DNA from: Prorocentrum cordatum
Taxonomy: Eukaryota
Direction of reading: 5' to 3'
Length of the DNA stretch: 64,000 bases
NCBI GenBank assembly: GCA_963575745.1
Contig: CAUYUJ010000303.1
Span: 434,001-498,000 of the forward strand
The position numbers were made by a program, and so were the translations under genes. The notes below the pieces were generated by a model. The model was given only the letters and a program-made list of their open reading frames with translations. It did no database searches and was not told where the DNA came from. The stretch's first letter is position 1; each line of letters starts with the position of its first letter. Positions 9,290 through 63,264 of the stretch are shown piece by piece.

Positions 9290-9350
<61 letters not shown>

Positions 9351-9508
9351 TTGCCGTCGTCATTGCCGTCGTCATTGTCCATTGTCCTCCTCCTCCTCCT
9401 CCTCCTCCCTCCTCCTCCTCCTCCTCCTCCTCCTCGTCGTCCTCCTCCTCCTCCTCCTCCTCCTCCTCCTCCTCCTCCGCCGTCCTCCTCCTCCTCCTCC
9501 TCCTCCTC

Positions 9509-16136: not shown

Positions 16137-16189
16137 GGGGGAGCAGACCCGGGCCCCGAAAAAAAGGCGCCCCGACCCTCCATGGGGGT

Positions 16190-19100: not shown

Positions 19101-20169
19101 AACCTCACAGGGCCCCAAGAGGGTCCCAAAACGGCTCCAGCAGGGGTGCCCGACGGAGCTGAAGCCCCCACTTGAGCAGCGATTTTGCACCTTTCGCCCC
19201 GATACCGATCGCGTTCCGGAGGAGTCTTGCCGGAACGCGGGCGGCAAGGGCGCCACCCAAAGCACCGCGTTCCCGGAGGGGGGCAGGAGGAGGAGGTGGA
19301 AGGGGGAGGGGGAGGAGGGAGAGGGGGAGGAGGAGGAGGAGGAGGAGGAGGAGGATGACAATGCTGATTATGATGATGATGATGAGGATGATGATGATGA
19401 TAAGCGTTGGATGATGATGATGTTGATGTTGATGATGACGATGATGATGGTACCGGGGCTCATTTTCCTTGCGCGTTACAAGGTCTCCGCGCCCCGGGCT
19501 CCGGAGGCCGCAGGGGCTGCTGAAAGCCCAAGGCTGTTCTGCAGATGGTCTGAATAGGCCCAAGGACAATCTCAGAGCGCTCCGAGAGGGTCCCCAAACG
19601 GCTCCAGCAGGGGTGCCCGACGGAGCTGAAGCCCTCACTCGAGCAGCGATGTTGCATCATTTTCCGTGCGTTTCTACAGGGTTTCCGCGTCCGGAGCCCT
19701 CGAGAACGCAGCCTGCGCGGAAAGAGTTCCAATCGCAGGTTCCGCCTGGCCCGGCCCAAGGACAATCTCAGAGCGCTCCAAGAGGGTCCCAAAACGGCTC
19801 CAGCGGGGGTGCCCGACGGAGCTGAAGCCCTCACTTGAGCAGCGATTTTGCATCATTTTCTTTGTGTTTTTACAGGGTTTCCACGTCCGGAGCGCTCGAG
19901 GGCGCAGCCTACGCGGAGCGAATTCCAATCGCAAGTACCACCTGGCCCCAGGACAACCTCACAGGGCCCCAAGAGGGTCCCAAAACGGCTCCAGCAGGGG
20001 CGCCCGACGGAGCTGAAGCCTTCCTTTGAGCAGCGAGTTTGCATCATTCGCCCCGATACCGATCGCGTTCCGGAGGAGTCTTGCCGGAACGCGGTCGGCA
20101 AGCGCGCCATCCAAAGCACCGCGCCCCCGGAGGGGGGCAGGAGGGGGAGGAGGGGGAGGAGGAGGGAGA

Positions 20170-20200
<31 letters not shown>

Positions 20201-20770
20201 GAGGAGGATAATGCGGATGATGATGATGCTGATGATGATGACGATGGTGATGATGATGATGATGATGATGTTGATGATGATGATGATGATGGTACTGGGG
20301 CCCATTTTCCTCTTGGTTTTTTTTTACAAGGTTGCCGCGCCCCAGGCTCCGGAGGCCGCAGGGGCTGCTGGAAGAGGCCCGAGGCTGTTCTGCAGATGGT
20401 TCCAATCGGCCCGAGGACAATCTCAGAACGCTCCAAGAGGGTCCCAAAACGGCTCCATCAGGGGTGCCCGACGGAGCTGAAGCCCTCGCTTGAGCATCGA
20501 TGTGGCATCATTTTCTTTTTGCTTTTTACATGGTTTCCGCGTCAGGAGCCCTCGAGGGCGCAGCCTGCGCGGAATGCGTTCCAATCGCAGGTTCCACCTG
20601 GCCCCGGGGCAACCTCACAGGGCCCCAAGAGGGTCCCAAAACGGCCCCAGCAGGGGTGCCCGACGGAGCTGAAGCCCTCACTTGAGCAGCGATTTTGCAT
20701 CATTCGCCCCGATACCGATCGCGTTCCGGAGGAGTCTTGCCGGAACGCGGTCGGTAAGGGCGCCACCCGC
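16190..20770. repeat. Higher-order satellite (6 blocks, 15 core units) bounded by (TA)n tracts
   Basis: 15 copies of the core CAAGAGGGTCCCAAAACGGCTCCAGCAGGGGTGCCCGACGGAGCTGAAGCCC, ~190-200 bp apart within a block. Blocks are separated by (GGA)n/(GAT)n linkers. Confidence 0.92.
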
Positions 20771-35404: not shown

Positions 35405-42900
<7,496 letters not shown>

Positions 42901-43956
42901 TCGACCCCCCTCATCCCCACCCCCCTCCTCCCCCTGTCTCAGAACGCTGACTCCCACGGTGCCCCAGAGAGAAAACATGGAATGGGGGAGCCGCAAGGGG
43001 GGTGGGGGGGGGAGGGGGCGGAGGAGAAGGCCCCATTCGACTAAATTCACTCGCCCTTCAAACCTCGTCGCTGGACCCGTCCAAGTCGATGACACCAACG
43101 GGTTGCTGACCCGCCGTCGCCCTCATCACCTCAGCCACTGCAGTCGCCACCGAAATCTCCCTGATTAACCTCGTGCCGCACGGTGCCGTCTAGTTTGAAA
43201 TTGCTGCCCTGAAACGCCACGAAGTCCCTGCCCCTGCCGCTCTGAGGCATCGGATCGCCGCTGCCGGCGCCGCGGTGTGAGGACATGTGGCCTATAATAT
43301 GTAGATCGGCCAATGTTCGTTGCTTGGGCCAAGTCGTTCTCGAGGAAAGGGTCATGGGCAGGAAGGGCCAGGGCGACTGATCGCGGCTGTCTGGGCTGAG
43401 TTGCAATGGCATTCGTGATTCCACTGGTTAATACAATCAACCCGCAGAACATGGATGCGCGATAAGGTCGCAAGGGCATTGGACGCCCATGTCGAAGCTT
43501 CCCGAGCGGGGCGCGGCCAACGGAAGTGCCCAAGGATGGGCCCAGGAAGCAAGGATGCAAGGGTACCCTTGGGAGGGATGCCCATCCTTACTCTGCGGGT
43601 TGACGGTGTCCGTAGATCCCACGGTCAAGCCGCCTCTTCCAAACCATTGGCTTGCGCGCCATATCTTAGCATGGCTCCCGCGCCCAGTCCTGCGACTGCG
43701 CGCTAAACATCGTTTCCAGACGGGCTGCCCCCTCAACCCCTGCGCCCGCGATCCTCTTGCGCCCTCCTCGCACGCACAGTCTGGGGTGCTTCGCCTCCAG
43801 CGGCAGTGGCCAAATACTCGACACACGCGGCCGTCGTACTAATCCATCCAACCATCCAGTTCTCTCTCTTTCTCTCCCTCTTTCTCTTTCTTTTTCTCTC
43901 TGTCTCTCGCTCCCCCCTCTCTCTCTCGATCTCTCTTTCTTTTTTTTTTTTTTGTT

Positions 43957-43994
<38 letters not shown>

Positions 43995-44036
43995 TCTCTT
44001 TCTTCTCTCTTTCTCTCTCTCTATTATCTCTATTTT

Positions 44037-44151
<115 letters not shown>

Positions 44152-44840
44152 GCTCTATCTACCTGTCTCTCATTCTATGCGCGCCCTTCGAGATATACAT
44201 GCAGTCAGGCGCGATTTTTTCCGGGGGGGGGAGGGGCGTGGTCGGACGCAAAACCATTGTTTAGGGCTGTGAAAGCAGGATCGACCTACTCATCGCACCG
44301 ACTGTACACGTATATACACCCCTGTCTCCATTTCTGCTTGCAAACAAGCGCGACGGCAGTGCGAGGTCGAGCCGCCCCCTGGCTGGGGGGGAGTCAGTCT
44401 GACTCGGTCTTCTTCTGACCTTCATCATGATCATCTCGACCACCTCCCCATCCCCGCGATTGCAAACGGTGGGTCGTCGACACTGGGAATTGGCTTGGCA
44501 ACGCATCGGAATGCGTTGCCAAGCCAATCATAGCATCGACGACTGAATGAGAGAATGACGAGGATGACATGGCTGAGAAACGATGGAATCAGGCATGACG
44601 AGCACGACGAGGATGACATGGCTGAGAAACGAAGGATGACTAGGAGACGCGACGAGAATGAGCATAGGAATGGCTGAGAAACGATGGCGGGGAGGCAGCG
44701 CCCCTGCACCGCCGCCCCACCTGGCGCAGCTGCAGTCAGCTGTTCCACCTCCTTGTCCCGCGACTCGTACACATTGTCGGCGTTGATCTGGCCTCCCTCC
44801 CTTTTCCTCACGCTCGATCTCTTTCGCTCGGTTGTTTTTT

Positions 44841-44892
<52 letters not shown>

Positions 44893-44897
44893 ATTTG

Positions 44898-44949
<52 letters not shown>

Positions 44950-45110
44950 CTCTCTCTAGTCTCGGCTCGAGAGTGCCCTGCACTCAGACCGCAGCCGCGA
45001 CGCGAAGCGCCCCGCCTCGGAGTCAGACTCCCAGGCCTCGCGAGACCGGAGGGGTCCCAGCAGGACCCTACTGATTCGCGTCACCTCTCTCCCACCAGAG
45101 CGCCCGCCGC

Positions 45111-47682
45111 AATGGCCCCCGGTAAGCCGGAGCGCCGTCGCTCTTCCAAGCAGCCGCCGAGCTCACGTCCTGCAGCTGAAGGGTCTCTCCTCCAACGCAA
45201 GCAGGACTGCATCGCAGCTTTCAAGCAAGCGGGGTCTGACCGCCCCACGGCCGCATACAACGGGCTCGCCGAGCTGAACGCGGACGAGCTGCAGGCCACG
45301 TACGACATGCACAAGACCAACACAAAGAAGCTCGGCAGTGCCTTGATCCGCATGTGTGCCGCCAACCAGATCAGCTACACGCTGGATCACCACCAGCGCA
45401 GCAAGCCTAAGCGCATTGGTGGTGACACATCACACCCACCAGCTGCGTCCGCACGTCTTCAGGCTGCGGACGCCCAATTCATTGCCTTGGACCCGGCCTT
45501 CTGGAAGGTCCCAGTCCTTGCCGAACCCACATCACTTGACGACGGCAAGACGTACAAGCCCAGTATCAGCCTCCACGACTACGAGAGCGGTGAACGGCTG
45601 CTGCAACACCACCTCGAGCAGGGTAAGCGTACCACGGGTCAGCTTGCGATTGCTGTCATGGGCCCAAAAAACGATAACTACGTCGGTACCGAGCTCGCCG
45701 TCCCCGTGCTGAAGCGTCACCCCAAGGCGCCCAAAGTGGTCCACACGCACGTCCCCGTGACCGTGTACCAGCTGGGCACCAAGGAAGTCGCCTGCACGGA
45801 AAAAGTAGCCGTCGCCACCATCGACCCTGCCGACCACGTATGCTGGATTCGGGCGACCATACATGAAACCGAGGCCATCGCCGCAGTCCCCTCCATGCAT
45901 CAGGCCTTCGAGGATCAGTTCTCGGGAGGTGCCCCCGTGAACGGTGGTCCACGCGCCAAGGGTCCTTTCCGAAGGGACTCCGCTCCACAGGACAAGGCGC
46001 GCCAAAACCAAAAGCACAGGGAGTCCAAGAAAGACGCTCGCCGCCAGGAGCTCGATAGTCAGCTCCAGGACACCTTCAAGGCCCTCTTCCACGGCAACTT
46101 TAAAGCCGTCACCATCCTCGAACCCTGCAAAAGCCTAGGCAGGTATGGATCGGGCGTCGGAAAGAGGTCCCTGGCTGCCACCTTCGGCGTCAGTCTTCAA
46201 GCGGTTGACAAGGTCTTGGCGGGTTCAGGGCAACTCGGCGCCACCTACGACCTCAGCAACGTAGGTGCAGACGAGCCCACTGCAGACAAGTACCAGACCG
46301 TGTGGTTCCCTGAGGACCAGCCCATCACGATGGCAGATGCGTTCCAGAAGTCGGTGGATTTCAAGGCCCTTGGAGTCGTCAGGCACGGCAAGTCAGGCTT
46401 ATTGGGGATCCGTGTTGCACGAGGGTCAGACGCCGCCAAGGCTGCTGCCGTCAGCATCCGTGGCTGCGAAGCCACCCTCGCCAAGACGCGATACCGCATC
46501 ACTGGCATTGCGGCACGCCACGCCACGCTGACCCAGTTCGCTAAGACTCTCACGGGCCCGTCCGTCAAATGGGACTGTGAGGTCTACCACACCGCCTGGG
46601 ACCCAGCCACTTCGGCTCAGTTTGCCTTAGTGCGCGCCCATCGTCCCCCACCCACATATACGGTACAGGTCGCAGGGTGCCCCATCCCGTGGAGCATCAC
46701 CGAGGCCCCGTTGGCTGAGGTGGTGCCGAAGAGGGACAACGTTACCATTGTCACCCCTACCACTATCACAGAGCCTGTGACGCCGCCAGCCCGTGGTGGC
46801 GGCTTCAGCCCCGCCACTGGCACACTACTCACCAAAGCGGCCCAGAGCCCTTACCTCCACGACCTCATGACTGCCACGCCCAAAGGCAAGGGCGTCGCAC
46901 CGCTCCTGATCCCCAAGGAGGAGCCTTTAGCCAAGCGCCACCGATCCTCCAGTGGGAAACGCGACGCCACGCCGCACGCAAGATCACACGGCGCCCCAGG
47001 CCGCAGCTCCTCTGCACCCCCGCACGGCACGGATGGAGCTGCCGAGCAGACGGCCGTCCAAGGATCAGGTGGTCATGACCCGCAGCTTGGCACGGTGGCG
47101 GCTGAAGGCGGGGGCCACACGGAAGGGGACGCTGCCACAGCCGCCGAGGTACCAGGCGACGCTGACGACGTCGAGATCCTCTCATCAGGTGATGAATTCA
47201 GCGTGGCATCTCGCGAACTCAACACCTTCGGGGAACGCTTCGCAACGGCCCCTAAACTGCCAGATGCCGCCACGACCCGCATCCAACACATGGAACAACA
47301 GCACGAGCTGCTTGCCAACACGGTGGATAACATGCAGGTTCAGCTTGCGGGCGTTCTCTCATCCCAGGCCACACTCACGGAGCACGTTTCAGGTTTGGAA
47401 CGAGGGCTTGCCACCGTCGTCACCCAGCAACAGACGGCAAACACCGAAGCTGCTGCACTGCGTGGCGACATCCAGGCCCTCCTCGGGCACCTCACGGGGG
47501 GCACCATCCACCTGCCACAGGTGGCCACTCTCGAAACAAAAAAGGAGGAAGCTGCATCAGTTGCCGATCCCGTGGCTGTCTGCGGGTGGATCGACCAGCC
47601 AGGCCAGGTCACCCCAGGGACGGGGCCCCCAGGGGCTGACAAAGGCAAAGACAAGGGTCGGGTCACTCAGGAACCCTATTGA
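45111..47682 (+). CDS. LINE-B ORF1-like protein
   Basis: Intact ~856-aa ORF at the 5' end of the element. It has a globular alpha/beta centre (TVWF..LGVVR..LGIRV..YRITGI) and a C-terminal heptad coiled coil (IQHMEQQHELLANTVDNMQVQL). Confidence 0.65.
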
Positions 47683-47856
47683 AGGTGCCTCAGAGAGCCT
47701 GCCTCAGCCCTCCGAGGAAGCGCCTTCAGAGGCATCTCTTCTCTCTTCGCGTCGTATCTCTTTCTTGTCATATCATGTCAGTTTTGGCAGCAGCACGTGC
47801 AAGCTATCTGGTGTAGGGACACCCGTCATCTTGCAGGGGGAGTGATTGTTGCAATG

Positions 47857-50800
47857 TACATGAGCATGCAGGGGTATCTGAGGATGCGTGCTGACATGCA
47901 GCTTTTGGCTCATCGCTCGCGCCGCCCGCCAGGCCTCGCCATCATGTGGCGCCTTGCCTGCAGCCTGGCCCTCCCCTCGCTCGCTGGAGCACACCCGTCT
48001 TCAGGCGGTGCGCCCCAGCATGGAGGTGAGGTTTTCCTGCGACACGCTGAACGTGGGACTCTTTTCTACCTTTACGATGACAGCATCTACAAGTACGATC
48101 ACTGCACCATTTTGGACCCGATCGTGAACAGCACCGTAGCCGCGGGTCCGTGCGGCAACGGACCGCTGGGCGCCATCGTGAGCGCATGCACGCCCTTGTC
48201 AACTACGACACATGCATCGAAATCCACCCCCAGCGTGGCCTCGACTGCGGTGCAGCAGATCTTTGACGGGGACGTTGATATAGGCCAGGCACACAGTGGC
48301 GGCTTCAGCCCCGCTGTCGTGCCCCGCTATTGCCCCACGGGTCTCACCACCCCCTGTGCGCTAGGGGCGAACCCGAGGAGGACCCTGCTTTCTGGCACCT
48401 GATGATGATCCGTGCCCGGCTCATACCGTGTGCTGCGGCGTGGGCACCAGGTGAGGACCACCAGGACGTGTTCTGGGCATGGCTCGAGGACTGCGTCCCG
48501 TACATCCTGGCGACGCTTCATCTGCCACAGTACGATCACCTCTTCCAGGAGGATTCTGAGGACACAACCGACGCCCTGCGCCAGCTCACTGCGCTCGACA
48601 TGTGCGAGGACATCTGGTATAGAGCGGGCCTCGACAGACAGCGCACAAACCGCAACCTCACTCTTATCCAAGGCAGCCGCGAGTATTCCACCCGTTACTT
48701 TGGCCTCCTTCTGGAATACCAGGGTGCTCGTGCCCAGCTTGTCGGCCCTGAAGCTTTCACGGCACCTTTGCCGCCATACCTCTCACGGGCCCACGCCTTA
48801 CTACCAAGAGGCCTTCCCCCACCCGACCAAGACGCCCTGGCGTACCTCGCCGATGCGATCCTGCACCACCCGACAGACATGCAGCCGCTTGTGGAGGCGG
48901 AGCTCGCCGCGGCACCGATGGAACCGCTTAACCCACCACCGCCAGCTGGCCTCGCCCAGCACGCCACGGGTGATCAGGCCGCAGACGACCCCGTACCATG
49001 GTTGCCTCAGCACATCGCGGCCAGCGACATCAGCGACACACCCCTCGACTCATTCCATGCGTCGGACGATATCAGCAACATATCCCTGGGCTCGGTCCAC
49101 GTGGACGATAGCCAGGACGACATGGAAACCCAGGATCGCAACGGCACAACACCACCAGGCGACACGGCCCAGCGTGACAGCGACAGTGAACCCTACTTAG
49201 GGCACACCTCGTCGCACAGCAGTCCGCCCAACAACTCGGCTCAGGCCGACCCCTGCGCACAGCTCAACGACGCTGAAGGCGTCACTGCCGCCGACGCGAC
49301 AAGCCATTCCACTGCATCGCCAGCTCATGCCAGCCCGTGCAGTGGCGGCTTCAGCCCCGCTGCAGCACTGGCTAGACCTGGACATCCCCAGACCGCAGGT
49401 GGCAGCACCACGCCCTTCACCTCTGTACACCGTGACAACGTGACTGACTCCAACCCCAGTGTCATTGGCCACTGGCAGGCCGACATCGACAACGACCCCA
49501 TCGATGATGAGTACCCAGATGCCAGCGGTTCCCACGAGCCCCAGCACAGCGCAGCGGCATCACGACATTGTGGCTGCCTCATCTGCCTCTTTGTGGCCAC
49601 GTACGCCATCGTGATAGCAATGCCGTACAAGGACCAGATCGATGGGTACTTGCCGACACCGAGCCGAGACCCCAGCGACCGACAACGACGACGACGCAAA
49701 GCGACGGCACCAGGCCCATCTGTGCCCACCACACCCCGACGCACAACGACATACAACGTCACGTCCGCATTGTGGGCCACTCTCAAATGGACTAGCGTCA
49801 AACTCAGAGATAGCGTCTCGGGCGGAGCCACCGCAGTCGGGGTCGGCCTCGGGGGCGTCCTGAAATGGGCCAGCGGCAAGCTCGGGGCTATTGCCACGGG
49901 TGGAGTCGTGTGTGGTCTTCTACTCGTCGGTGCCAAACTTCTTGCCCAAGGAGCTGTCGGACACGTAGGAGCCCGCATCTGTGCGCGGGCCCTGGACTCA
50001 TCCACAGCCCAGTGGTGCCTCCGCTGTTGCCAACCGAGCAGGAGGCCGCGTGATGAGGCCACATACACAATGCCGTGCACGCTCGCCGACGAACACGACG
50101 ACCAGCACGTGCACGCACTCCGACATCCGCAGCTGCAGGAACACTACGCCGCAGCAGTTGCCGCCGCAGTCGCCGATGTCACTACCGCCACCACCGCCGC
50201 CATCGTCGAAGTCACTGCCGCCGTATCGCGAGCCTCGTCTGTCACACCAAGATCGACCAGCCCGTCTCCGCGAGACGGCTCCAAAAGCGGCGCGGCATAC
50301 GGTAACCTACCGACTAACGAGGATGCCACAGCACACGGCAGCGACACCGAGGCAAGGGAAACACGTGAGTGCACCCACGATAGCCCGTGGTCCATCTTCC
50401 GACACGCTGATGCTCGTGGTTCCTCTCCCGACGCGGACACCCAACCACCACGACGGCGAGCGCGCTATGCATCACCCCACAGGCCCCAGGCGCCTTCAGG
50501 CCCTGGTATGCCTTACACAGCCCTCAAGCCACCGACACGCAACTTACGCAACACTATCCAGCGCGACCCAGCGGTCCCCGTGCCGCCGAAGAGCATACTT
50601 AACGCCCTGTATCAAAACGGCTTTGCGCTTGGTAACAGTGGCGTGTCTACAGAGGACATCAAAGACGCTCTGCGACTCCACGACCATCCTCGATTTACAC
50701 ATGATCCAATACTCCAAGCGCTGGGGCCGTGGACGGACATCATGCAGAGGCCCCCGAACCGCCTCACTTGGGTGCTCGAAGACTCGGGCGGAAACTCAGG

Positions 50801-53800
50801 CGAGACAATCTTCCCATACCTCACGTGGGACCTCCGCCAACCCACCACCGACGCGCCCACTGTCTTCTGGCATGGGACCCGCGGCGACCTTGCGGCCCGT
50901 CTTGCTGCCAGTGGAGGGCACCTCTTGCAGGTCCCCGCCGTGAAGCGAAGGGCCGAACTGGCACCAACGTTGGCCGCACGTACGCGAGCGTGCACCCTTC
51001 GCTGGCCGCGTGGTACGCAATGCCGCCCCACCCGCCCTACAGTCTCGAAGACGACACCCTCGCGTGGGGACCCATCGCACTCTGGATGTGCGAGGCCACC
51101 CAACCACCGCGCGGGGAAAACAGGCACAACTTCGTGAAAGGGGAGGCCCACGGAGCGCGCCTCATTTACCCTCGGGCCCTGAGCCTCCTCATCCGCATGG
51201 ACTGGTGCGCCCCCACAGAAGCTGCTTCCAGGTGCCGTGCCCTACCACACGCCTATTGCATGGGCGACTGCGCGCACGCCCTTCACATCGCTGGCTACGA
51301 TCATCCAGATCTCCGTGAGGCGGCTGAAGCTCACGACCAGGAAGCTAGCACCAGGCGCAGAACAGCCATCGCGGCAGCGTGGCCACCGCCGCAGGCACTT
51401 TTTTTGGTTTTCTTTTTTTTATTTTTTTTTTTCTTTACTTTTATTTTTTTTTTATTTTTTTTTATTTTTTTTTTCTTTTTTTTTTTCTTGTTTTTTCGTT
51501 TTTTTTTTTTTTTTTTTTTATTATTTTACTCGCCAGAGGCAGCGCGAGTATGGGCCAAACAGCACTACGACACGGAAGCAGCCACCAGTGATGACCCTAA
51601 CCAGCCCCGCCCACGCGTCTCGCTTCACATGCTCCAGCTGGACCCGAAACCACTCATCGACCTGGTGTACACTGGCTTGCAAGCTGTCCCCGTGCGGGGG
51701 CACCCTGACGCACGCGGGTCGCGCCCCAGCGGCTCCAGCCCTGGGGCCGCGTCTGGCCCACCACGCACTTACAAGTCAGGCACAGCCCTGGCGCACAGTC
51801 CTGACCGCTCATCGACGTCATCAGGAGCCGACGAACGCCGCACGCCTTCCCTCATCAGTGCGGCCGCCGCCCTCGCCCGAGGCCGTGCCCGCCCACGGCG
51901 ATCTGCCTCTCGCTCGTCACGACAGAGTGGCGGAAATTCCACCTCAGACAACAGTGGCTTCGAGACGTGGGAGCACATTGAGACGGAAGAGGAGCCGACT
52001 GCCTACCACGTCCTCGCCTACCACGTCCGTGATGTGCGGACCCGTGTCAATGCCCCTGGCATCGAGGTCTGGCTTGACCCTGGTGATCACCACGACGGCG
52101 CCTACTTACCGTGGGGGACGACAGTCATGGGCCACCGCGTTATAGACCCTGCGGTAGCGGGGCGGGACGGCTGGGTCATCCTCCACCACGACCACGGCGA
52201 CACCACTACTAAGCTCTGGGCACCGACCCAAGTCCACGTCAAGGCGGACGACACCTGGCGCACCGTCATGGTACCAGCGGACATGGGGCCCCAGTGGATC
52301 AGGTGCCGCGCCGAGGACGCTCGCCTCCCCGCCGAGGTTGTCCGCACTACAGGCCAATCCTGGTTTGCTGACGTCTGGCCCTTGTGGGATCGCCCGCGAC
52401 CCCACCCAGACGACCCAGGCGCTCCCGCCTCTACCAGGACGCTGGTCTTGCCTTCAGTGTCGATTCCAATGCTGTCAGTACTGTGCGGCTCGCCGCAACA
52501 CGCAGCTCGGCACCTCGGGCCAACCAACGTGCCCAGACTGCGCCCGCAGCGGACTGCGTACACTTATGGACTGGTCCACGGACTACTCGTGCAACAGTTG
52601 GACGTGTGCATACAGCACCAACAACAGGGACTCCGACACATGCTGCCTGTCCAGCAGGTGCCCCCATCCCCCCCGTCCACACAGCCTGCTCGACGTCCGT
52701 GCCACAGGGATGCCGCCGCACATCCTTGCCCGCCAATTCGGCAACGCGCCAGCCCTCCACGACCTTAAGGAACCCCCCGAGCGCCTTCAGGCCCCGGGGG
52801 GGAACCTCCACAACCAGGGCAAGCAGGTTACCAGGGTCAATGGTACTTCCCACCGCAGCCGCGGCGCGTCCCCAGGCAGGGACTGCCTGACGGCACAAGG
52901 CGGCCACCTGGGTTCACAGGAACGGGGATGCCCGAAGAACCTTTCCCCGACCAACCTCTTTGGAGGGAAGGCTACGTGCTCTTCAGCCCCCACAAGGCCC
53001 TCAAGGAGGAATTCACCTTCAACAAAACGGTCCGCCGACCCTACTCCCTAGCCATCACCAACATGTACAGGGACCGTGTCACGGTCAGGACCGTCTGCGA
53101 GTCGATCGCCGAGCGCATCCACACTACCCGCACCCGGTGGCGAGATGTGGTACTGTACTGGGACGCCGAGGGTGGCCCTGGGCCACAAGCCCTCGACTAC
53201 GACATGCGACTCTGCGACGCCATGGTGAGCCGTGCCACGACCGAAGCCGAGCTAAACCACGACCGCAGCAACCGTGGTAGTTTCTGCCTCTATGGGCCAG
53301 CGCACCAGCGAGCTGTCAACATCACGGCGATCTCCGAGCCGCAGAACATCGACTACATGGAGCATGTGCGGCGATACTCACCCGTAGGGGGGACCTACCC
53401 TGACCACGCCTTCGAGCACGTCTATCGGGGCTGGCAGCGGCCCGACGTGCCACCATCCTCCCCGACACCCGTCCCCTCTCGAGAGCCGACTGGCAGCGAC
53501 ACCAACAGCACCAGCAGCGCATTCAGCAGCGCGACCCACGTGACGCAGGACAGCAGGGCACGCCACGCTACCGCTCTCCCGCGCGAGTCCCGACAGGCGG
53601 TAACACGGCCTACGACGGGGTTGCCGCCTACTACCGTGGCACCATAGGTGCCAGGCCCGCGGCTGCTGGAGCAGCCGCCTCCAGCTACGGCCACGCCCCC
53701 CACGCCAGGGTACACCCAGCGGTCATCGGCTACCCGCGTGCACCCGTGCAGGCCCTCCCAAGGGCCACCTCGCCAGTGCCAGGGTCCACGCGCGCCTGGG

Positions 53801-54834
53801 GCCTTTACTCAGGCCGACATGATGGCACCTCCAGAAACCAGCCCGCAGTGATAACCCCTGCGGCTTCAGCCCAGGGGGCTGCAACAAACCGTGGCAGGGC
53901 TGGGCGCCCCGAAGGATGGCGTGATGCGAACGTTCGCGCTTGGCAACCTCGCCAGCACACGCCCCCGCCAAACGTGGCTGCAGCACTGCGCCCTGCCCAG
54001 GCAAAACCTGCCCCACCTGAGCGGGAGAGGCAGCCGCTTACCCCGCTCGTCCTCACGCACATCCAGGCGCATCACAGCGCCTCCCCGCGGCACAGCGAGG
54101 GAATCGCCCACCACGTCAGCCCCCGCCCCGACGCTGTCGACCCTGACCAGGCCACAGCCACGGCGGAGGGCGGCACAAGCGCCTCTCGCCAGCCCAGCCC
54201 ATCACCCTGCGCGGCGCCGATCCGATCCCCGAGCAGGGCGGATTCCGAGCGCGCTAATGCCCAGGCGACCTCGCCACGCGCCCGCCACACGGGCGGGCGC
54301 GTCCCGCGCAGCAGGTCCTGCAGCCGCCACAGCTCACGCAAGGCCCCAGGGAGCTCCACGAGCTCGCCGCCTCGCGAGACTCAGTCTGATGGCCGAGCCC
54401 CCGAAGTGGTGCCACGCTTCGGTGCCAGCGTCATCGAACCTGGCCAGGTCGACCTCGAGCCGACGCCGTCCACGGACCACGAGCCGCCGCTGCCCACCCG
54501 CGTGATCGTCCCCATCGACGAGGCGCCAACCTTCGACCCGTTCAAGAACAAGTACCGTGTCAAGAACCTTGTGGCGGTTTTCGGCGGGGGCTCACCGCTC
54601 TCACCTCAGAGTCGGGGCGGAGCCCCCGCCACCTCGGCTGCTGCGGCAGCGGCGGCCCCGCGGGGAATCAGCCCTGTCCGCAACGTGGGCCTCACGGCAG
54701 CGGGCATGGACGAGGCCCAGCGCCAGGCCTCCGACCGTTCTGCTGGAGCTGTTCCACCAGATGCTGCTCATCAAGATACTGACGGGGCGGGCGCGCCACC
54801 GCAGGACGGACCAGCGGTGTCGCGTGCGCAGTAA
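47857..54834 (+). pseudogene. Extra coding region of LINE-B: chain of + strand frames broken by frameshifts/stops, with hydrophobic segments and an ART-like domain
   Basis: Abutting or overlapping ORFs 47797-48402, 48330-51137, 50729-52768, 52928-53647 and 53746-54834, all non-repetitive. Confidence 0.55.
50855..51205 (+). other. ADP-ribosyltransferase (PARP-like, H-Y clade) domain, frameshifted at ~50925
   Basis: VFWHGT (His codon at 50871) ..GG.L / LAGP..GRTYASVHPSLAAWYA (Tyr codons at 50981 and 51014), then beta-strand-like IALWMCEA and LIYP. Confidence 0.55.
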
Positions 54835-55112
54835 ATGCGCGTGCGTTGTGCCGCTGCCGCGCCTAGCCGCCGCCGCTGGTTCGCTTTTGCTTTTGTGTTC
54901 GGCAGGACGGATCGAGGAGTCGCCTCCCTCTCCCTCTGCTGCCGTCTCACCTCTCCTCCCCTCGTCCCCTATGGTACAGGAGTGAGGAGGATTTTTCGAG
55001 ACAGTTTTACTGACGTTTATGAACCCCCCCTGGCGCAGTGCCGACCATGTCTCGCCTATACTTCTGGCCTGACGGCGGCTTCAGCCCCGGTCAAGCTAAT
55101 CCATAGGAACGC

Positions 55113-58100
55113 CATGAGCTCCTACTGTGGCCAAGCCTTCTACCTGGGCGAGGGTCAGGCTGACCTACACCGTGCGGGGCGTGCAAACCCCAGCTCCACC
55201 GATGGAGACGGGCCAGGTCGCTCCATACACCTCGTCAGTCTAAACATCACCAGTCTCTCAGCGAATTGGCCAACCATCACCGCTCTTGGTGTCGACCACA
55301 ACGCCGCAGTCATTGCACTACAGGAGACCCGACATGCCAAGCCGCCCAGACAAGCCATCGCTACCAGCGCCGCCAATCCACACCACGGGGGATACCACGC
55401 CAGTCTTGGACCTGACCTGGATCTGGCGCGAGCCCAGCGCAGAGATGCCCACGGCGGCACAGACCACACCGTCGTGGGCAACACTGGCGCCTCGGGAGGG
55501 GTCGCCATCCTCTCTAAGGATGCCATTGTCGACTCCACTGTCGACGACAATGCGCCCTGTATCGTCGCCCTCAAGGCCAAGAAAAGATGGCGCGAGGTCT
55601 TTCTCCCGCTCTGCACTCAACACCGCCGCAGGCGGCGACGAAACAACCACGGGCCCGCGGGGATCTACATAGCGAGCCTCTACGGGAATGCTGGAGGAGA
55701 CAGCACAGCTCTTTTTCGGCTCGCTGACTGCGCCGCCGCTAGGGTCGGCTCAGCCCCCTACTTCATCTGCATGGACGCCAATACGAACATCGACGACAAT
55801 CCACACCTTCTGCACATGTTGCAGCACGGATGGTTCAACGTCGCTGAGGGCACACCAGACCACACCATGCACACATACGGCAATATCCCCGACTGGGACC
55901 GCGTCACCAAGTGCCCCCGCACTTCGCGCATCGACTATATCATTGCCAACCAAGCGGCGCGATCCCTTGTCACCGACTTCTGCTATCTACGCGACTTGCC
56001 AGCGAAGTCTCATGTTGGCCTGCAGGTCACGCTTGACCTCAGTCGCCTCGACCATACGGCCCGACGTCTTCTTGCCCCCACGCCCTACCCTCCCAACGAT
56101 GGAGCTCATGAGGGTCACGAACTGCAGGCACTAGGGACCCTTATCGCTGGGCGATATCAGGACCGCATGGAACAGGCCGACACACGCGACGACGTGGAAC
56201 GCATGTTCGCCCTGGCTAACGAGGCCAGTCATGAGTACCATCTCACCCGTCTGCGGGACCTGCCACCTCCACCGCCCGACCACCCAAAAAAGAAGCCCCC
56301 CACCATGCACGGGCTCACGCCCACGTTCGAAGAGCGACCAGTCGTCCCCCGCGCCTTCCCCACCTACGGAGCTTCCACGATACACATGAACCGACTGCGC
56401 AAGCTCCATCGGCAACTCTGTGAGCTTCGTTTCATCGGACAGCACCATCATTTAGATTGCCGTGCCATCCCGCCGTACCTTGCGCAGCGCATCGACTGCA
56501 CGTGGACCGCGGCCCGCCTCCTATGCCACAAGCTGCGCCCCACGGTTCTCCTTGACTTTCCCGAGGCCTGGACCCCCGACGAGCCAGCACCTCACGGAGA
56601 GCATCTTGACGTTTTGATCCAACACCTCGACTTAGAGCTGGCGCGACGTGCGAACCGTGCCAAAGCTGAACGCATCAAGATATGGGCTGAGGGCGTCCGC
56701 GAGCCAAGCGGGCGAAAGGCGGCCATATACGCACGGGCTGCTGACAGCTCGCCACGGCGTATCTCCGCACGCCTACCACACCTGACGATACGCAACTCCA
56801 CTGCGACACCAACGCCTTTAAACCTGACGAAGCTAGCACGGACGACAGCGACGCTGACACCGAAGCTGGCGGCTTCAGCCCCAGCGACGGTAGTTCGCCC
56901 GACACGGACAACGACGAAGACCACACTCGTGAACCACCACCTGCGCAAGTCCCCGACATTCTCCCTGCCAACGCCATTGTTGCTAACACCAAAGACATGC
57001 TTAAGCTCATGGTCGACACTTGGGAGCCCATCTTGGGCAGGTACCGTGCCCGTGCTGGACATGACGCCGAAGCCATGCCGACGTGGGCTGACTTCTACGA
57101 CGAGTACCGACAAGAGCTGCCGACGCCATCACCAGCTACCCCTTTCCACCTCACCGACGACCAACTCATCCACTTTATTCGCACCCGTTCACCGCGCCGT
57201 GCGGGGGGACTGGACGGCTGGACTACTAAGGAGGCTAAGGAGTTACCCGACGACATCCTTCGCCTCTTCGCCAGCGTCTTACGCGCTATGCAACGCACTG
57301 GCACCATCCCAGAACCCCTCCTTCATGTGCCAAGCCCGTGCCTCCGAAAAGGCCGAGGCGAACTCCCAACGGACCAACGACTTCTCTCGGTGCTTTCCGT
57401 TTGGATGTATGCGTGGGAAGCGCCAGCTTACCGCAGCCTCACGGACTGTCGGAAAGGATGGACCCACGCCACGAGTTTTGGCGCTGTCCCCAAAGCTACC
57501 ATTGGGGACGTCAGCACCTCTCTTGCCCTGCGCATCGAACACGCCAGGGCCTTACTCCTTCCCTTAGCTGGGGCTGCCCTTGACCGACAGAAGTGTTTCG
57601 ACTACCTCATCACGGACATCTGCCTTAACCTTGCGCTTCACGCGGGGTGCCCCAAGACATCGTTACTGTCCGCAGAAACTTCTACAGTCGCCACAAACGC
57701 TACATCCGCATGAACGGTGCGTACTCCAAGGAACTGGCCAGGACTAACGGTCACCTCCAGGGAAGCTCTTGGTCCCTGGACGACATTAAGCTGCTCATGT
57801 GTGTGTGGACCAAGAGACAGCATCGATACGTTCCGCGATCACTCAGCACTACCTTTGTTGACGACAGCAACTCCACTACTCACACCGCGCCTGAGTTGCA
57901 GAAATCTCTTGATGAAACCGCCAAGTTTGATCGATTTTCAGGTCAACGCATTCACCCTGGCAAGGTGGCGGGGTGGGCGCTCACCGACGAGCTTCACGCC
58001 GCCGTTACCCAGCTCACTCTGGCGGAACGGCCCTTACGCGTGGTCGACTCCTTCAAGCTCGTCGGGAGTTACATCAACGCCGAGGCAGCGCCGGCTCCAG

Positions 58101-60943
58101 CCGCGCTTAACCTCACGGCCACCGCTGACGCCCGTTTTCGCAGGGCGACTAGTCGCCTGCCGCGCATTGGCAAGCTCCCATCACCGATGCTTGTTAAGGC
58201 GCGGCACGCCCGTTCCCTTGCTGCCAGCGTCTGTACCACGGGCACCGACATTCAAGCCCCATCAGGCCCCGTCAAAACTGCCTACAACCATGCCCTTAAG
58301 GCGGCTATCCGCCCCAAGGGATACAGGTGGGTCGAGTTTTGGACTCTCATGGCCGTGTGCGTCCCAGGACACGCCCTGGAGATTGACGCCATTACGCAGC
58401 GTGAAGTCTTCCTGTGTCTGCGGCGACAGGTTAACCGCGACGCTACTCTCTGCGGTCTCGTCAGGGATCTCCAACACCATGTCCAGACCCTATTCGGGGG
58501 AGGACCTGTCGGTCGACTTGTCCAGACGCTTCAGCAGCTCCGTTGGACCTGGCCCACATTTGGCATCATGTACGACGACTGGGGCTGTCAGATCAGTTGG
58601 CTGAACTTACCCCAAAACGCCTTCCTTCACATGCTGCGAGCCTCACAACGCAGAGCCTTTCTGAGAAAAATCAAGCCACGGCGTCATGACCTTTGACACC
58701 TGGCCTCTGTCAGACAGGGCCTCGACCTCTTCGCCAGCACGTGGCTCGCCCGAACGAAAGGAGCAGCCAAATGCAATGCCTGGCAGCTGGCGCTCCTCCT
58801 GAACTACCTGTCGGGCGGGGACCACACCCAACAGCGACGATCCCGATCAAACACGTCTGCTGACCCCAGCCCCATCTGCCGATACTGCGACGAAGAAGAG
58901 GAAACTCAGGAGCACACTGTTCGCGACTGCAAGTGCTGGGCCCGAGAAAGAGTCCCTCTCACCACCCTCATCAGTGACGAGCAGTGGGCCCGTCTTCCGC
59001 CGCACACAAGACACTGCGGGCTCTTCGATGAAGACCCAGCCCCCCTCGACCTGCAGGCCGACCTCGCGAGGGACCCGCTACCTCAGCCCATACCGCGGCC
59101 CCCACCTGAGGGAGATCCTGCGGCTTCAGCCCAGGACTCCTACACAACCTACCTTGACCACGACACTGGTTGGACATGGGTCTACGCTGCCACGGACGGT
59201 GCATGCACCAACCAAGCCATCCCATTGCTAGCACGAGCGGGCTACGGCGTCTACTACGGCATCGACCACCGCATGAACTACAGTGCACGCGTTCACGGCA
59301 TTACGCAAAACGCACAGCTTGCGGAGACCCTCGCCATTGTCCACCTCACGGCATGTGCTGAACGGCCCGTACACGTTTTCGTGGACAACCAGGCGGTGGT
59401 AGATGGGTTCCAAAGTATCATCGACGGACACTCACCACCGCAGGGCACGCACGTGGAGCTCTGGGAAAAGATCCACCGATGCGTCATGGCCAAGCCCAAC
59501 ATGTTCCGCGTCGAGAAAATCGCAAGCCACCTGGGAGACATGGGCATCGACCTCGGGCTCATCGGGCCCATCGCGGAGGATTTCAATCGTCAGGCTGACG
59601 CCCTCGCCACAACGGCGGCACGTACTCATAACCTTCCAGACGACATTGTCGAAGCTGCCAAAACACGACATCGCCAAGCGACCGTGCTTCATGGAGTCGC
59701 TGTCGCCATCTACGAGCGTAGACACCGTGCACTCCCCCTCCCACACCGCAGGGCTGGGTTCACAGCTGCGGAACTCAACAAAATGGAACCAAATCCCCTG
59801 CTGTCTGACCAGGCACCACCCGCGGCTGGACCAGTCATCCCACAGAACCCGGACGAGCTCTGGGCCGAGGCCCAACGGGCGATATTCGACGAACAGGAGG
59901 ACGACCCGTTCGGCTTTGGTGGGGGCCTGGACTTCCTGGGCGACGGGCCAGCCAGCGCAAACCCTGCCTCGTCGGGCACCCGCACGGCGCCCTCGACTCC
60001 GCCATTGAGAGCGGCAGCGCACCCACATGACAACGCCGCTCACTTTCAAGACGCTGACGAACAGGAGGATGACCTGTTCAGCTTCGGTGGGGGATCGGAC
60101 GCTTTGGACGACGGACCAGCCAGCGAAAACCCTGCCCCGTCGGGCAACCTCTCGATCCCTACTGCGACTCCGTCCCCGAGAGCTACATCGCCCACATACG
60201 ATGATATCGGCCACGCCCAAGACGCCGACCACGACCTGGGTGACCCCCGCGGACTGAGTGGCATAGAGGACGCACCGCCGATACCACACGCTGCCGACCA
60301 TGCCGCCCTACCGAGACGCCAACCTTCTACGCGACCGACCTCAGAGCCCTTGCACGGCATCATGATTGGTCCCACCGCGCAAACCACTCCGCCCCCCCAC
60401 CGCCGGCAGCCCGCGGGGGCGGCTTCAGCCCCCACGCAGGGCACTAAACCAGACAGGCCCTCGTGCCCCGTCCACGCTTCCATCGTTGCTGAGCGAGAGG
60501 AAGCGGCTCTCCCGACCTCTCGGGGCGTGGCCCTAGCGGCTCCAGCCCTGGGGTCGCGTGTGCCCCTCCAGTCACCCTTCAAGGGTGACGGACGACAGCG
60601 TACAGGGTGCCGCACTACGTTGGTCCACCATTTGGACAGGCGTACCGAGGACCTTGCCTCTGTCTCGAGGCCCTCGGCTGCTGGCACTGAGCAGCCACCC
60701 CTCACCGACCGCGAAACCGAGCTGTCACAGGCTATGGCTGCTCTCCAGCAGAGGTGCTTAGCTCTCGCCGCGGACCTCGCCGCCGCCCAAGCTCGTCAAG
60801 GCCCTCTACTCCAGCGCCTTCACAGCGCTGGGCGAGCCTTTGCCGAGCTGCTCACGGCCTCGCCCGATGGTGCCGTGCCGTCACTCACCATCCAAGCTAT
60901 GCTGTCATCGTTCCGCGGCGCTCCACCTGGTGCCCCGCGCTAA
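55113..60943 (+). pseudogene. LINE-B ORF2: APE endonuclease, reverse transcriptase, CCHC knuckle, RNase H; 2 frameshifts and 1 stop
   Basis: APE: SLNITSL, ALQETR, GGVAIL, MDAN, RIDYII, SH. RT: AGGLDGW, QRLLSVL, LDRQKCFD, GHLQGSSWS, FVDD. Knuckle CRYC..EH..C. RNase H: ATDGAC, QLAE, FVDN, KIASH, NRQAD. Frameshifts at ~56750 and ~57650, TGA at 58694-58696. Confidence 0.93.
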
Positions 60944-61318
60944 TCTCCTCCTTTCTGCCTGCCCGTGTGTACGCGTGGCTCCGCGTCCACGGTGTCAGGG
61001 CGTGGGGGCGGGGGGTGCCCCGTCACTGCGCGCCGCTTAGCGGCCAAGCGCCCAACTGGCGGTCTGCCAAGCCGCCTAGCCACGTGTCAGCACGTCGCCT
61101 TTCTTGTTGGGGCCTCTTTCTTTACGCGGTCTGACAGGTGAGATCATCATCGTCTGTCCGCCGTCTGCAGCGTCTGTCGCACTGCGCCGGGGGAGGGGTT
61201 TTTTGTTGCCCGCCCTCGTATCTAAAGGCTGCACCGCCGCAAATAGTGCATGCGAGTTGTCGCACCGCAGTGCGCCTCGCGGACGGACCCTGGTCCGCCT
61301 ACTTGTCCGATCTCTCTT

Positions 61319-61354
<36 letters not shown>

Positions 61355-61599
61355 TCTCTCTCTCGCATGTTATTTGCATCTTGCGTTATATATTACTAGG
61401 TGCCTATATCACTCCTCCTATTCCTGCCTCTCGGTCTCACTCTCCATCCCTCTCTCTCTCTCTCTCTCTCTCTTTCGCATTTCTCTTGGCTGCCTGGATA
61501 TCGCTCTGGAGCTGCATCTCTCTCACTCTCCCTCTCCCTCCCCCGATTCTCTGAATCTAAACGCTCCTCGCCAGACTCCATCGTACTTCACCGCTCTTC

Positions 61600-63264
61600 A
61601 TTGCTGAGCTCATCGCTACTCTCCCCGACCTTGCGATGCGACATTCCCAGTGTCCTGCGGAGTACTTCTTGCACAGGTTGACTATGGCCTGGCGCGCAAT
61701 CTCGTGAGTAACCTCGCCTTTGATCGTCACCTGGCATACCTGGCTCCACTTCTCGCCTGGCTTCGCCTTCTTCTCCTGCATCACGAAGATCGAGTGCCGA
61801 TCCTGGGGGCGCGCGAAGGCAGTGCTTCGTCGCGCGGGGCATGGGCTAAGGGTGGATGGGGGCAGGGGCAGGGCGAGAGGGCGGGCAGGGGGGGAGAGGA
61901 TGGGGAGCAAGGAAGAGACCAGATGACGAGGATGACCGGAGGGCGAGGATGGACGGGGGGGGCGATGAGGATGGGCAGATAGGGAAGGAGGACCAGGATA
62001 AGGGCGATGTGAGGATGGCCTCTAATTCCCCAGAACCTCAGCGCACGCAAGTTTTGAAGTGGCAGTGCAATTTTGACACCAACGCTGGAATGGGCTTGAG
62101 CGGAGGACAGAAGCAGCGGGACAAGCAAAACAAGCATCTCCTTCTGTGGCTTCAACTTGGCCTCCAGCTTTTTCCTCCCATCATGCGTCTTTCCTTCACA
62201 CACTGGCGGTACCCTGCCCTTTCCAGGATGCGTTTTCACTTCCAGCGCTTCTGCCAAATCTTCAGGCCTCATGTTTTCCACGCGAATCCATTCTCCTGCA
62301 ATCTTACCCCTCACCTCGTTCTCATAACTCGTGCTATCAAGCTCGTCGCTGTAGATGGGCTGACCTTTCTTCGCTCCCGAGCCCGCCCGCTGCGTGTACG
62401 CCATGGCTTTTGCAGAGCACCACTTCGCTGTCTTCTCATCTCCTCCTGAGCTCTTCCCTCCTGCCGCGACTGCTGCTGAACCTGCAGCTGCCTTCCCTGC
62501 AGCCTCGGCCGTCTCATCCAGCTTCCTCTTCTTTGCAGCCTCCTCTGCCTGAGCCGTCATTTCTCGCTGCATTGCAACGTGCCTCCTCTTCTCGATTTCG
62601 TTGAGTCTACTCACTACGCTGGGCCATGCATCGTCGAAGACACTTTCCTCGATCTCGTCGAACACTTCAACTTTCCTAACACTAGTCATAACTGTCTTTG
62701 ATCCAAGCTTGATCCGAGGCATTTGTCTCTCTGCATCGACTTCGGGGCCCTCACATTCTTTATCTGTAGTCGTGGCTTTCAACCTCTTGGCTTCCTTTTT
62801 GCGTGCCTCAACTGCGCCTGCTGCCCCTGCTGCTGGTTTCTTTCGCACCGTCTCCTCAGCGCCGTCACCTGATGCCTCATCATCGTCAGCTGGCTTGGCA
62901 GCAGGCCTCTTCGCAACTACTTTCGAGGCTGGTCTCCGAAGCACCTTCTTTAGCTTTTCACCTGGCTTGTCCTCATGATCTGTTGGCTCATCGGATGCTT
63001 TCTTCGCTGGCCGCTTTGACACGGGCGTGGCTTTCTCTTCGTTGTGCTCTTCGTCTTCGTCTGCCTCGTCCTCGTCCTCCTCCTCTTTGATGCTTCTAGC
63101 GGCTGCCTCTTCCTCCTCCTCTTCTTTTCCTCCTCATCCTCATTAGTTTCTTCTTCCTCTTCCTCTTCCTCTTCCTCTTTGATATCCTCATCTTCGCATT
63201 CCGCCTTCTTGTCCTGCTCGCAATCATCTGGCGCGGGCCTCTTCATCGCTACGAACGGCCGCAC
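61600..63264 (-). CDS. Lys/Glu-rich KRPAA-repeat protein of unknown function, probably multi-exon
   Basis: Repeated KRPA/RRPA/KKPAA motifs and acidic tracts, followed by a globular part (GEWIRVENM..KLEAKLKPQKE) and a downstream exon (IFVMQEKK..WSQVCQV..LCKKY). Confidence 0.45.

Follow-up and report, generated by a model that had tools for sequence, protein, structure and literature searches.

How the proteins of a long interspersed nuclear element (LINE) pick out their own RNA, a behaviour known as cis preference, is a long-standing question, and the mechanisms recognised so far rely either on a poly(A) tail or on one 3′ stem-loop. For the stringent-type LINEs (L2-type elements of zebrafish and eel), the published outlines describe a 3′ stem-loop that is recognised by the element's own ORF2 protein (PMC4176376, PMC5135761). 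Dispersed packaging signals, as outlined in the sources cited here, occur in single-stranded RNA viruses and in the pregenome of hepatitis B virus (HBV), the examples being MS2, satellite tobacco necrosis virus (STNV), parechovirus, enterovirus and the RGAG loops of HBV (PMC6281560, PMC4751978, PMC7612645, PMC5431903). Here we analyse LINE-B, a retrotransposon without long terminal repeats (non-LTR) that lies in a 64,000 nt stretch of Prorocentrum cordatum DNA (contig CAUYUJ010000303.1); this whole stretch is called the window below. The full element carries 15 hairpins, or about fifteen given a weak member at 47988, and the array may be likened to the cis-acting protein-binding hairpins of retroelements and RNA viruses.

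The pattern by which packaging signals are recognised, namely multiple stem-loops with a common apex and variable stems, was found in LINE-B. As in the outlines of the viral systems, many stem-loops lie across coding RNA, share an apical motif on variable stems and occur in any frame. Unlike the viral genomes, the carrier is a non-LTR retrotransposon without a recognisable capsid or coat protein, and in place of a degenerate loop motif LINE-B has a nearly invariant 13-mer apex, evenly spaced at ∼1.25 kb, the binding of which is only proposed. With the stringent-type stem-loop it shares a hairpin in LINE RNA, the loop there being, by the same published outlines, an identity mark that is read by the element's own protein. 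That stem-loop is single and lies in the 3′ untranslated region (UTR) next to the tail repeats, whereas the 15 hairpins of LINE-B are in the reading frame. A 3′ UTR hairpin of the stringent type was not found: our covariance model has no hit in 60944–61540, and the last site is ∼1 kb from the 3′ end. Periodic, apex-identical hairpins in a LINE reading frame were not found in literature listings and abstracts, which falls short of proof of their absence. Among the matches listed in a literature search with the sequence itself, only a 10-mer was present and the titles were unrelated to retrotransposons.

The array was noticed in a preliminary description of this DNA as a 13-mer, GCGGCTTCAGCCC, with eight copies on the plus strand of LINE-B and two on the minus strand (39846 and 39963) in an inverted sibling copy. 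All ten are exact (Table 1). As the same description supposed, no exact copy lies outside the LINE-B family anywhere in the 64 kb window, and the copies are confined to the sense strand of this one family; the DNA in which copies were counted, within the family and beyond it, was the window together with four metagenome loci (L001–L004). In 100 dinucleotide-preserving shuffles of the window the exact 13-mer was matched 0 times, compared with the 10 copies observed. With up to two mismatches, 19 matches are present in the window where 4.37 are expected. The nine inexact matches comprise four on the plus strand inside LINE-B (50490, 51729, 52781 and 60536) and five elsewhere on the minus strand. 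Around these five no complementary flanks were seen by eye; one of them reaches 13.5 bits with the covariance model (9849–9875), and the other four are not in the list of model hits at E values up to 10.

The 13-mer is translated in different frames, the translations giving GGFSP at 46799, 49345 and 56869 (frame 56745–57713) and AASAP or AASAQ at 53860, 55075, 59120 and 60419. It does not lie within longer internal duplications, since self-matches of at least 150 nt that join two places in LINE-B number 0. Information content drops to background beyond ∼15 nt around the 13-mer, and an internal duplication or tandem repeat was rejected as its source on these two grounds. The figure of eight copies in LINE-B thus holds for the exact 13-mer and is too low as a total, the element having 15 hairpins.

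The proposed folding of the 13-mer as a GGC-UUCA-GCC hairpin with a bulged C is borne out by all ten exact copies, the z-scores of which range from −0.59 (60419) to −4.30 (48299). The 13-mer corresponds to the apex, which consists of a closing G:C pair, the bulged C, a 3 bp G/C upper stem and the UUCA loop. The flanks of every exact copy are mutually complementary, yet their sequence differs from copy to copy, and the lower stem (3–12 pairs) is free in sequence. A structural scan for at least three contiguous lower pairs, a one-base bulge, a 3 bp Watson–Crick upper stem and a T[TC]CA loop finds 12 sites on the plus strand, all within LINE-B and all with C as the bulged base, and two on the minus strand, each of them in the inverted sibling. 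If any loop and any bulge are allowed, 61 hairpins in the window have this architecture.

For the analysis of covariation, 15 sites (13 in the element and two in the sibling) were aligned, anchored on the apex. Standard pairing is present in 86.7% of 165 cells, compared with 63.4 ± 2.3% when the partners are shuffled (none of 500 shuffles reaches the observed value), and falls to 33.9–56.0% when the partner is slid by 1–3 columns. Changes on both sides occur in nine of the 11 pairs of the aligned hairpins, and the middle pair of the upper stem is flipped from G:C to C:G at 50490 and 52781. The lower stems therefore covary, as a check suggested at the outset had left to be seen. The inner eight pairs of the 15 hairpins comprise 109 Watson–Crick cells, seven G·U cells and four other mismatches; that seven of the 11 non-Watson–Crick cells are G·U favours RNA. 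In each of the 15 sites the bulge is C and the loop, either UUCA or UCCA, has A as its fourth base. Counted from where the upper stem starts, information content is high only between about −2 and +13, so that primary sequence is conserved over ∼15 nt and, beyond these, pairing alone.

From the 15 aligned sites we built a covariance model, with which the window and L001–L004 were searched without filters. The model scores its training sites at 28.8–39.9 bits. The next two hits are both on the sense strand of LINE-B, at 45446–45472 (21.3 bits, E = 0.0095) and 47988–48014 (17.3 bits, E = 0.1), and all remaining hits score at most 15.6 bits. The two additional hairpins fold alike, with the apex C-GUC-UUCA-GGC and a U·G wobble in the upper stem.

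The 15 hairpins of the full element all have the sense orientation and lie within the reading frame; the first is located 340 nt past the ATG and the last 407 nt before the stop, and the covariance model finds none in either UTR. All three codon phases are used, the third by the diverged member at 45453, which is read as RLQ. The successive distances are 1346, 1196, 304, 1046, 1145, 1239, 1052, 1079, 1215, 1794, 1222, 1029, 1299 and 117 nt. Over all 15 sites the coefficient of variation of the spacing is 0.386 (P of about 1.7 × 10⁻⁴ versus 15 random points in the element). When the two close doublets are merged, the 13 positions are separated by 12 intervals of 1247 ± 202 nt, of which 11 are within 1000–1400 nt, and none of 300,000 simulations is as regular.

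Table 1. Hairpins of LINE-B and its sibling, and other features of the element (window coordinates; scores are from the covariance model, z is the fold z-score).
Feature	Position	Strand	Apex and reading	Score (bits)	z	Remarks
Hairpin 1	45446..45472	+	GUC-UUCA-GGC, bulged C	21.3 (E 0.0095)	−3.25	9 bp lower stem; fold −20.1 kcal/mol; outside training set
Hairpin 2	46792..46818	+	exact 13-mer at 46799, GGFSP	35.8	−2.24	
Hairpin 3a	47988..48014	+	C-GUC-UUCA-GGC	17.3 (E 0.1)	−2.85	outside training set; doublet with 3b
Hairpin 3b	48292..48318	+	exact 13-mer at 48299	36.3	−4.30	doublet with 3a
Hairpin 4	49338..49364	+	exact 13-mer at 49345, GGFSP	38.6	−3.11	
Hairpin 5	50483..50509	+	GCGCCTTCAGGCC	32.5	−2.63	middle upper pair G:C to C:G
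Hairpin 6	51722..51748	+	loop UCCA	36.3	−2.13	
Hairpin 7	52774..52800	+	flipped middle pair	33.5	−2.22	one A–C mismatch in lower stem
Hairpin 8	53853..53879	+	exact 13-mer at 53860, AASAQ	35.8	−2.10	
Hairpin 9	55068..55094	+	exact 13-mer at 55075, AASAP	30.7	−2.35	just upstream of endonuclease domain
Hairpin 10	56862..56888	+	exact 13-mer at 56869, GGFSP	33.9	−3.52	linker between endonuclease and reverse transcriptase
Hairpin 11	58084..58110	+	loop UCCA	28.8	−3.48	closing pair C:G, not G:C
Hairpin 12	59113..59139	+	exact 13-mer at 59120, AASAQ	32.7	−3.45	linker between zinc-knuckle-like motif and RNase H
Hairpin 13a	60412..60438	+	exact 13-mer at 60419, AASAP	36.1	−0.59	weakest fold; also in sibling
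Hairpin 13b	60529..60555	+	loop UCCA; one-mismatch copy at 60536	35.3	−3.53	lower stem of 12 pairs, two G·U wobbles where sibling has G:C
Sibling hairpin homologous to 60419	39956..39982	−	exact 13-mer	38.7	−2.92	
Sibling hairpin homologous to 60536	39839..39865	−	exact 13-mer	39.9	−4.20	
Full-length LINE-B copy, ∼16.6 kb	44960..61540	+				roughly even contig depth; 3′ limit from homology with truncated sibling
Giant coding region, ∼5,277 codons (15.8 kb)	45113..60943	+				ATG 45113, stop 60941–60943
EEP (apurinic-type) endonuclease	55291..55959	+				Pfam PF03372, E 9.7e-06, residues 153–375 of frame 54835–57567
Reverse transcriptase region	56934..58696	+				contains FVDD; protein identity 62–80% to metagenome loci L001–L004
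RNase H domain	59189..59620	+				Pfam PF00075, E 2e-06, residues 165–308 of frame 58697–60943
5′-truncated sibling, last ∼2 kb of LINE-B	38869..40771	−				self-BLASTN versus 59459–61540
(CT)n-type simple repeats	44824–44959, 61308–61484, 38861–39084, 40768–41097, 43861–44178					

In build, the hairpin resembles the iron-responsive element (IRE), in which a conserved loop on a short upper stem likewise sits above a bulged C and a lower stem of free sequence; several copies on one mRNA are read by one protein. Unlike the hairpin of LINE-B, the IRE has a 5 bp upper stem and a 6 nt CAGUGN loop and lies in UTRs. Identity with the IRE was rejected on the basis of the 3 bp upper stem, the UUCA or UCCA loop and the lack of an Rfam match. 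No family in Rfam 15 matches the hairpin, the only hit being mir-598 on the opposite strand with 29.3 bits against a gathering score of 69. The LINE I-factor of Drosophila has a localization stem-loop inside ORF2 and so provides another RNA hairpin embedded in LINE coding sequence; unlike that of LINE-B it is a single copy of another shape, functions in transport and does not form a periodic array. Operators of the MS2/PP7 type present a bulged A and an A-rich loop to the coat protein and were rejected as a match, the bulge being C at 15 of 15 sites and the loop UUCA or UCCA. A UNCG-type tetraloop (UNCG closed by C:G) is likewise rejected by the A at the fourth loop position of all 15 sites.

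The conserved apex, the free stem, the invariant bulged C, the absence of an extra-stable loop, the restriction to the sense strand and the independence of codon phase point to a single-strand signal that is read by a factor specific for both sequence and shape. UUCA is not a UNCG-type stable tetraloop; because it is not intrinsically extra-stable, conservation of the loop points to recognition rather than stability. A periodic cis-signal that is read at the nucleotide level, as the preliminary description had supposed, is well supported by the apex, the covarying stems, the uniform orientation, the use of three phases and the even spacing; such a signal could serve RNP assembly or packaging, export or processing. 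The tiling of the whole frame at ∼1.25 kb would suit a factor that acts along the entire 16 kb RNA and thereby favours docking sites.

In the reading that we favour, it is the sense strand that would fold into the hairpin, most probably as the element's RNA, and the repeated sites would dock one RNA-binding protein, for which a part of the giant polyprotein encoded by the element is the most plausible candidate. Docking would mark the transcript as 'self' and would nucleate its coating into a ribonucleoprotein that is later copied back into the genome, following a logic like that of the dispersed packaging signals of single-stranded RNA viruses. We infer that RNA, not single-stranded DNA, is the active form, and likewise that a protein binds and which protein this is. 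Repeated docking sites that nucleate the ribonucleoprotein of the element or mark its RNA as self are therefore proposed tentatively, with slightly less than even confidence.

Several observations weigh against repeated docking. This reading presumes that the element is transcribed, that the hairpins form in vivo and that a protein binds them; no RNA run is among the 24 runs listed for the LINE-B sequence. No RNA-binding or coat-like domain was found in the 10 kb 5′ part of the element, where Pfam reports 0 families in five frames and a PDB sequence search with three 5′ frames gives 0 hits; the AlphaFold model of 45466–46797 is unusable (mean pLDDT of 36). The orphan 10 kb could still hide a protein of the coat or capsid type. 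The hairpin at 47988 (apex at 47995), with its E value of 0.1, is the least certain member, and hairpin 7 (52774..52800), which is not picked up by the strict structural scan, has its site at 52781 admitted by a looser criterion despite one stem mismatch. Three of the seven G·U wobbles sit in three similar stems. Some lower stems resemble each other (for example GTGG/CCGC at 46799, 48299 and 49345) and five copies have the upstream sequence CCAGCCCG in common, so that descent from copied cassettes could account for a portion of the 'covariation'. The even spacing could partly reflect a tolerance of insertions that is limited to inter-domain linkers. As a gauge of apex conservation between copies, the sibling hairpins have four differences in 54 nt versus 11–18% divergence nearby, which is not significant and is the sole comparison of this kind.

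The history of the hairpins bears on the rival that survives best, a neutral or selfish micro-cassette. Here, a palindromic in-frame unit of 21–47 nt, without function, would have been copied from site to site in a master element, for example by template switching in reverse transcription or by small templated insertions, and kept only in tolerant linkers. The relatives available for comparison are L001–L004 (9.2 kb together) and a set of protein relatives, with 58–81% protein identity. The hairpin was not found in any of the four loci, with the covariance model included in the search. Only the sites 56869, 58091 and 59120 are comparable, and at these the hairpin is absent from L001–L003, P0002 and P0004–P0007; the hairpins are thus lineage-specific gains that arose through small in-frame insertions or through substitution. 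At 59120, L001 has a clean 21 nt gap, equal to the length of the hairpin, which corresponds to an in-frame insertion in LINE-B, and P0002 (81% identical) and P0004–P0007 are all 4–5 residues shorter. At 56869, the linker is ∼45 nt longer in LINE-B than in L001 and L003. Both gains are what such a cassette would leave behind. Groups of hairpins moreover share lower-stem words, codon phase and the upstream CCAGCCCG, and the recurrence of these stems and of the upstream sequence suggests that some hairpins were seeded by copying an existing one. The 45-residue windows around the hairpins are also somewhat less hydrophobic than the background (0.215 versus 0.264, P = 0.02), as expected for insertion into tolerant stretches.

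Against a functionless cassette, the hairpin at 58091 shows no length difference from L001 or L002, and its 21 nt differ from L001 at nine places (counted by hand), so that it arose by substitution. All 15 hairpins have the same orientation, though the reverse orientation would be open in two of the three frames, and the spacing is far more even than random, at about one site per 1.25 kb from the start of the frame to its end. Stems that are wholly different in sequence still pair, and no copy is present in the other 44.7 kb of window DNA, another LINE included. We consider this explanation unlikely.

The remaining comparisons add detail on single sites. Both 3′ hairpins (13a and 13b) are shared with the 81–89% identical sibling; their apexes, in place before the sibling's subfamily diverged, are kept intact. 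P0011 spans the site at 45453 and keeps SARLQ (protein only), P0010 begins just past 46799, the tail alignment of P0009 is too poor to judge 60419 and 60536, and P0001 is the only 'longer' protein match. A scan of genome contigs and viral contigs with the C-terminal frame of LINE-B found no relative. L001 has 12 and 23 stable local hairpins on its two strands, among which no shared apex, and so no other recurrent hairpin, was seen by eye.

Translational pausing is a second rival, in which the hairpins would slow ribosomes so that each segment of ∼415 residues of the polyprotein folds before the next is made. Where domains are known, the hairpins sit between domains or in variable stretches, that is before the endonuclease, between endonuclease and reverse transcriptase, in a variable stretch of the reverse transcriptase, before RNase H and in the C-terminal tail. 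This arrangement, the even spacing and the confinement to the reading frame would all suit pausing. Pausing requires stability, however, and has no need of a bulged C, a fixed loop or an apex of 13 invariant nucleotides; the stability of several hairpins is only moderate (−18.9 to −24 kcal/mol in a 53 nt fold), which is little for a translating ribosome. An origin as pause sites for translation is accordingly quite improbable.

The spacing of 1.0–1.4 kb would also suit a length-measuring process, and the element is unusually long and has an RNase H of its own. Whether in the RNA or as their complement in first-strand cDNA, the hairpins might serve as regularly spaced pause, hand-over or priming sites that help reverse transcriptase and RNase H to copy a 16 kb template, for instance with the second strand primed at several points. 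In one contig, 46815, which lies 4 nt past a hairpin apex, is joined to 60957, with a side of 21 nt. This single joint is weak evidence, the 5′ truncation point of the sibling (equivalent to 59459) is not at a hairpin, and we know of no precedent for internal priming sites in non-LTR elements. Signals for DNA synthesis appear very unlikely. Least favoured of all is the double-stranded DNA-binding site that was also raised in the preliminary description: the near-palindromes of so abundant a family could be recognised in duplex DNA as cruciform or palindromic sites by a host or element protein, for example in silencing or chromatin marking, but such a site needs no uniform orientation, bulge, asymmetric loop or G·U-compatible changes, and with 15 of 15 hairpins in one orientation and G·U in seven of the 11 non-Watson–Crick cells this is highly improbable.

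Four further candidates were rejected. Stimulation of frameshifting shows no pattern, the six frame junctions lying −442 to +437 nt from the nearest hairpin. A protease site or peptide motif is incompatible with a peptide that changes with codon phase, and a mimic of the tRNA T-arm would need another loop length. An assembly artefact is contradicted by gap-free contigs of other runs across 46799, 59120 and 60536.

Contigs of four public runs (X1, X2, X4 and X9) span 44781–61600 at roughly even depth, and their summed depth over LINE-B is very high, at about 10⁴ in two runs. The entire ∼16.6 kb is thus one high-copy repeat unit. The family reaches a very high copy number in at least two organisms, and its 31-mers are present in many marine, estuarine and freshwater metagenomes. 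The element is unusual in its length, its apparent single frame and its first ∼10 kb (45113–54834), which are orphan. In the window copy, single-base length differences and in-frame stops split the coding region into a series of long frames. Frame changes are found near 48349, 50927, 52772, 53449, 56751 and 57649, and at these six junctions some of the other copies have a C run that differs in length by one base. The six junctions could be real decay of the window copy or homopolymer errors of the assembly. The stop at 58694–58696 is private to the window copy, the other letter being found at 58694 at a depth of 4007.2 of 4041.9 in X1. The length variation at the junctions in other copies and the private stop indicate that active copies probably encode a single polyprotein of ∼5,277 codons from the ATG at 45113.

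The reverse transcriptase region is 41% identical to P0001, a 1,328-residue protein. RVT_1 is present in 32–66% of the members of its neighbour clusters in the Atlas; Pfam does not report RVT_1 on this region at E ≤ 0.01. By self-BLASTN, the sibling is 81.5% identical to 60056–61540 and 89.4% identical to 59459–60060. Both copies have repeats of the (CT)n type at their 3′ ends, and such repeats also lie immediately 5′ of the full copy; they may represent a tail of LINE-B or microsatellites into which it inserts.

Other observations concern the window copy itself. A T-rich simple repeat at 51399–51532 in the coding region yields stretches of F and L on translation, and reads seem to be cut there in the runs compared. 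Between 44200 and 61600, the window copy has T where other copies in the contigs of the four runs have C at 316–389 places, and A where they have G at only 121–175 places. This asymmetry is larger than the excess of C over G on the sense strand would produce, which suggests C-to-T decay or editing on that strand. In two runs, several contigs lack ∼125 nt (48153–48284), a stretch that reaches exactly to the 5′ foot of the 48299 hairpin, and one contig lacks 25 nt (48324–48350) just behind it. These missing stretches and the joint of 46815 to 60957, each backed by few contigs, may be deletion junctions at hairpins.

Elsewhere in the window, a second, unrelated LINE at 8968–14570 on the plus strand has an EEP endonuclease and RVT_1, and the hairpin was not found in it. 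A large tandem or nested repeat array with 75–93% identity between units occupies 16187–20768; on its minus strand it contains a look-alike word of the 13-mer, GGGGCTTCAGCTC, without complementary flanks. A fragment of a host-type gene, at 902–2281 on the plus strand, contains a domain of glycosyltransferase family 17; the clusters nearest to it in the Atlas are eukaryotic.

It is possible, if rather doubtful, that LINE-B uses a virus-like multi-site 'barcode' of invariant C-bulge/UUCA hairpins spread over its coding sequence, in which its polyprotein or a dedicated host factor recognises the hairpins and nucleates packaging of the 16 kb RNA. If true, this would be a natural hairpin–protein tagging system comparable to MS2 or the IRE, and its origin would be so recent that relatives with 81% protein identity lack it. 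Evenly spaced, recently gained and identical apexes across 5,277 codons would then be a new solution to cis preference, and also a clear case of nucleotide-level selection that overlaps protein coding in three phases. The 15 natural sites with different stems, together with hairpin-free relatives as controls, make the proposal directly testable, and it could yield a compact new pair of RNA tag and reader. The hairpins also draw attention to an unusually large and very abundant LINE with a 10 kb orphan coding region.

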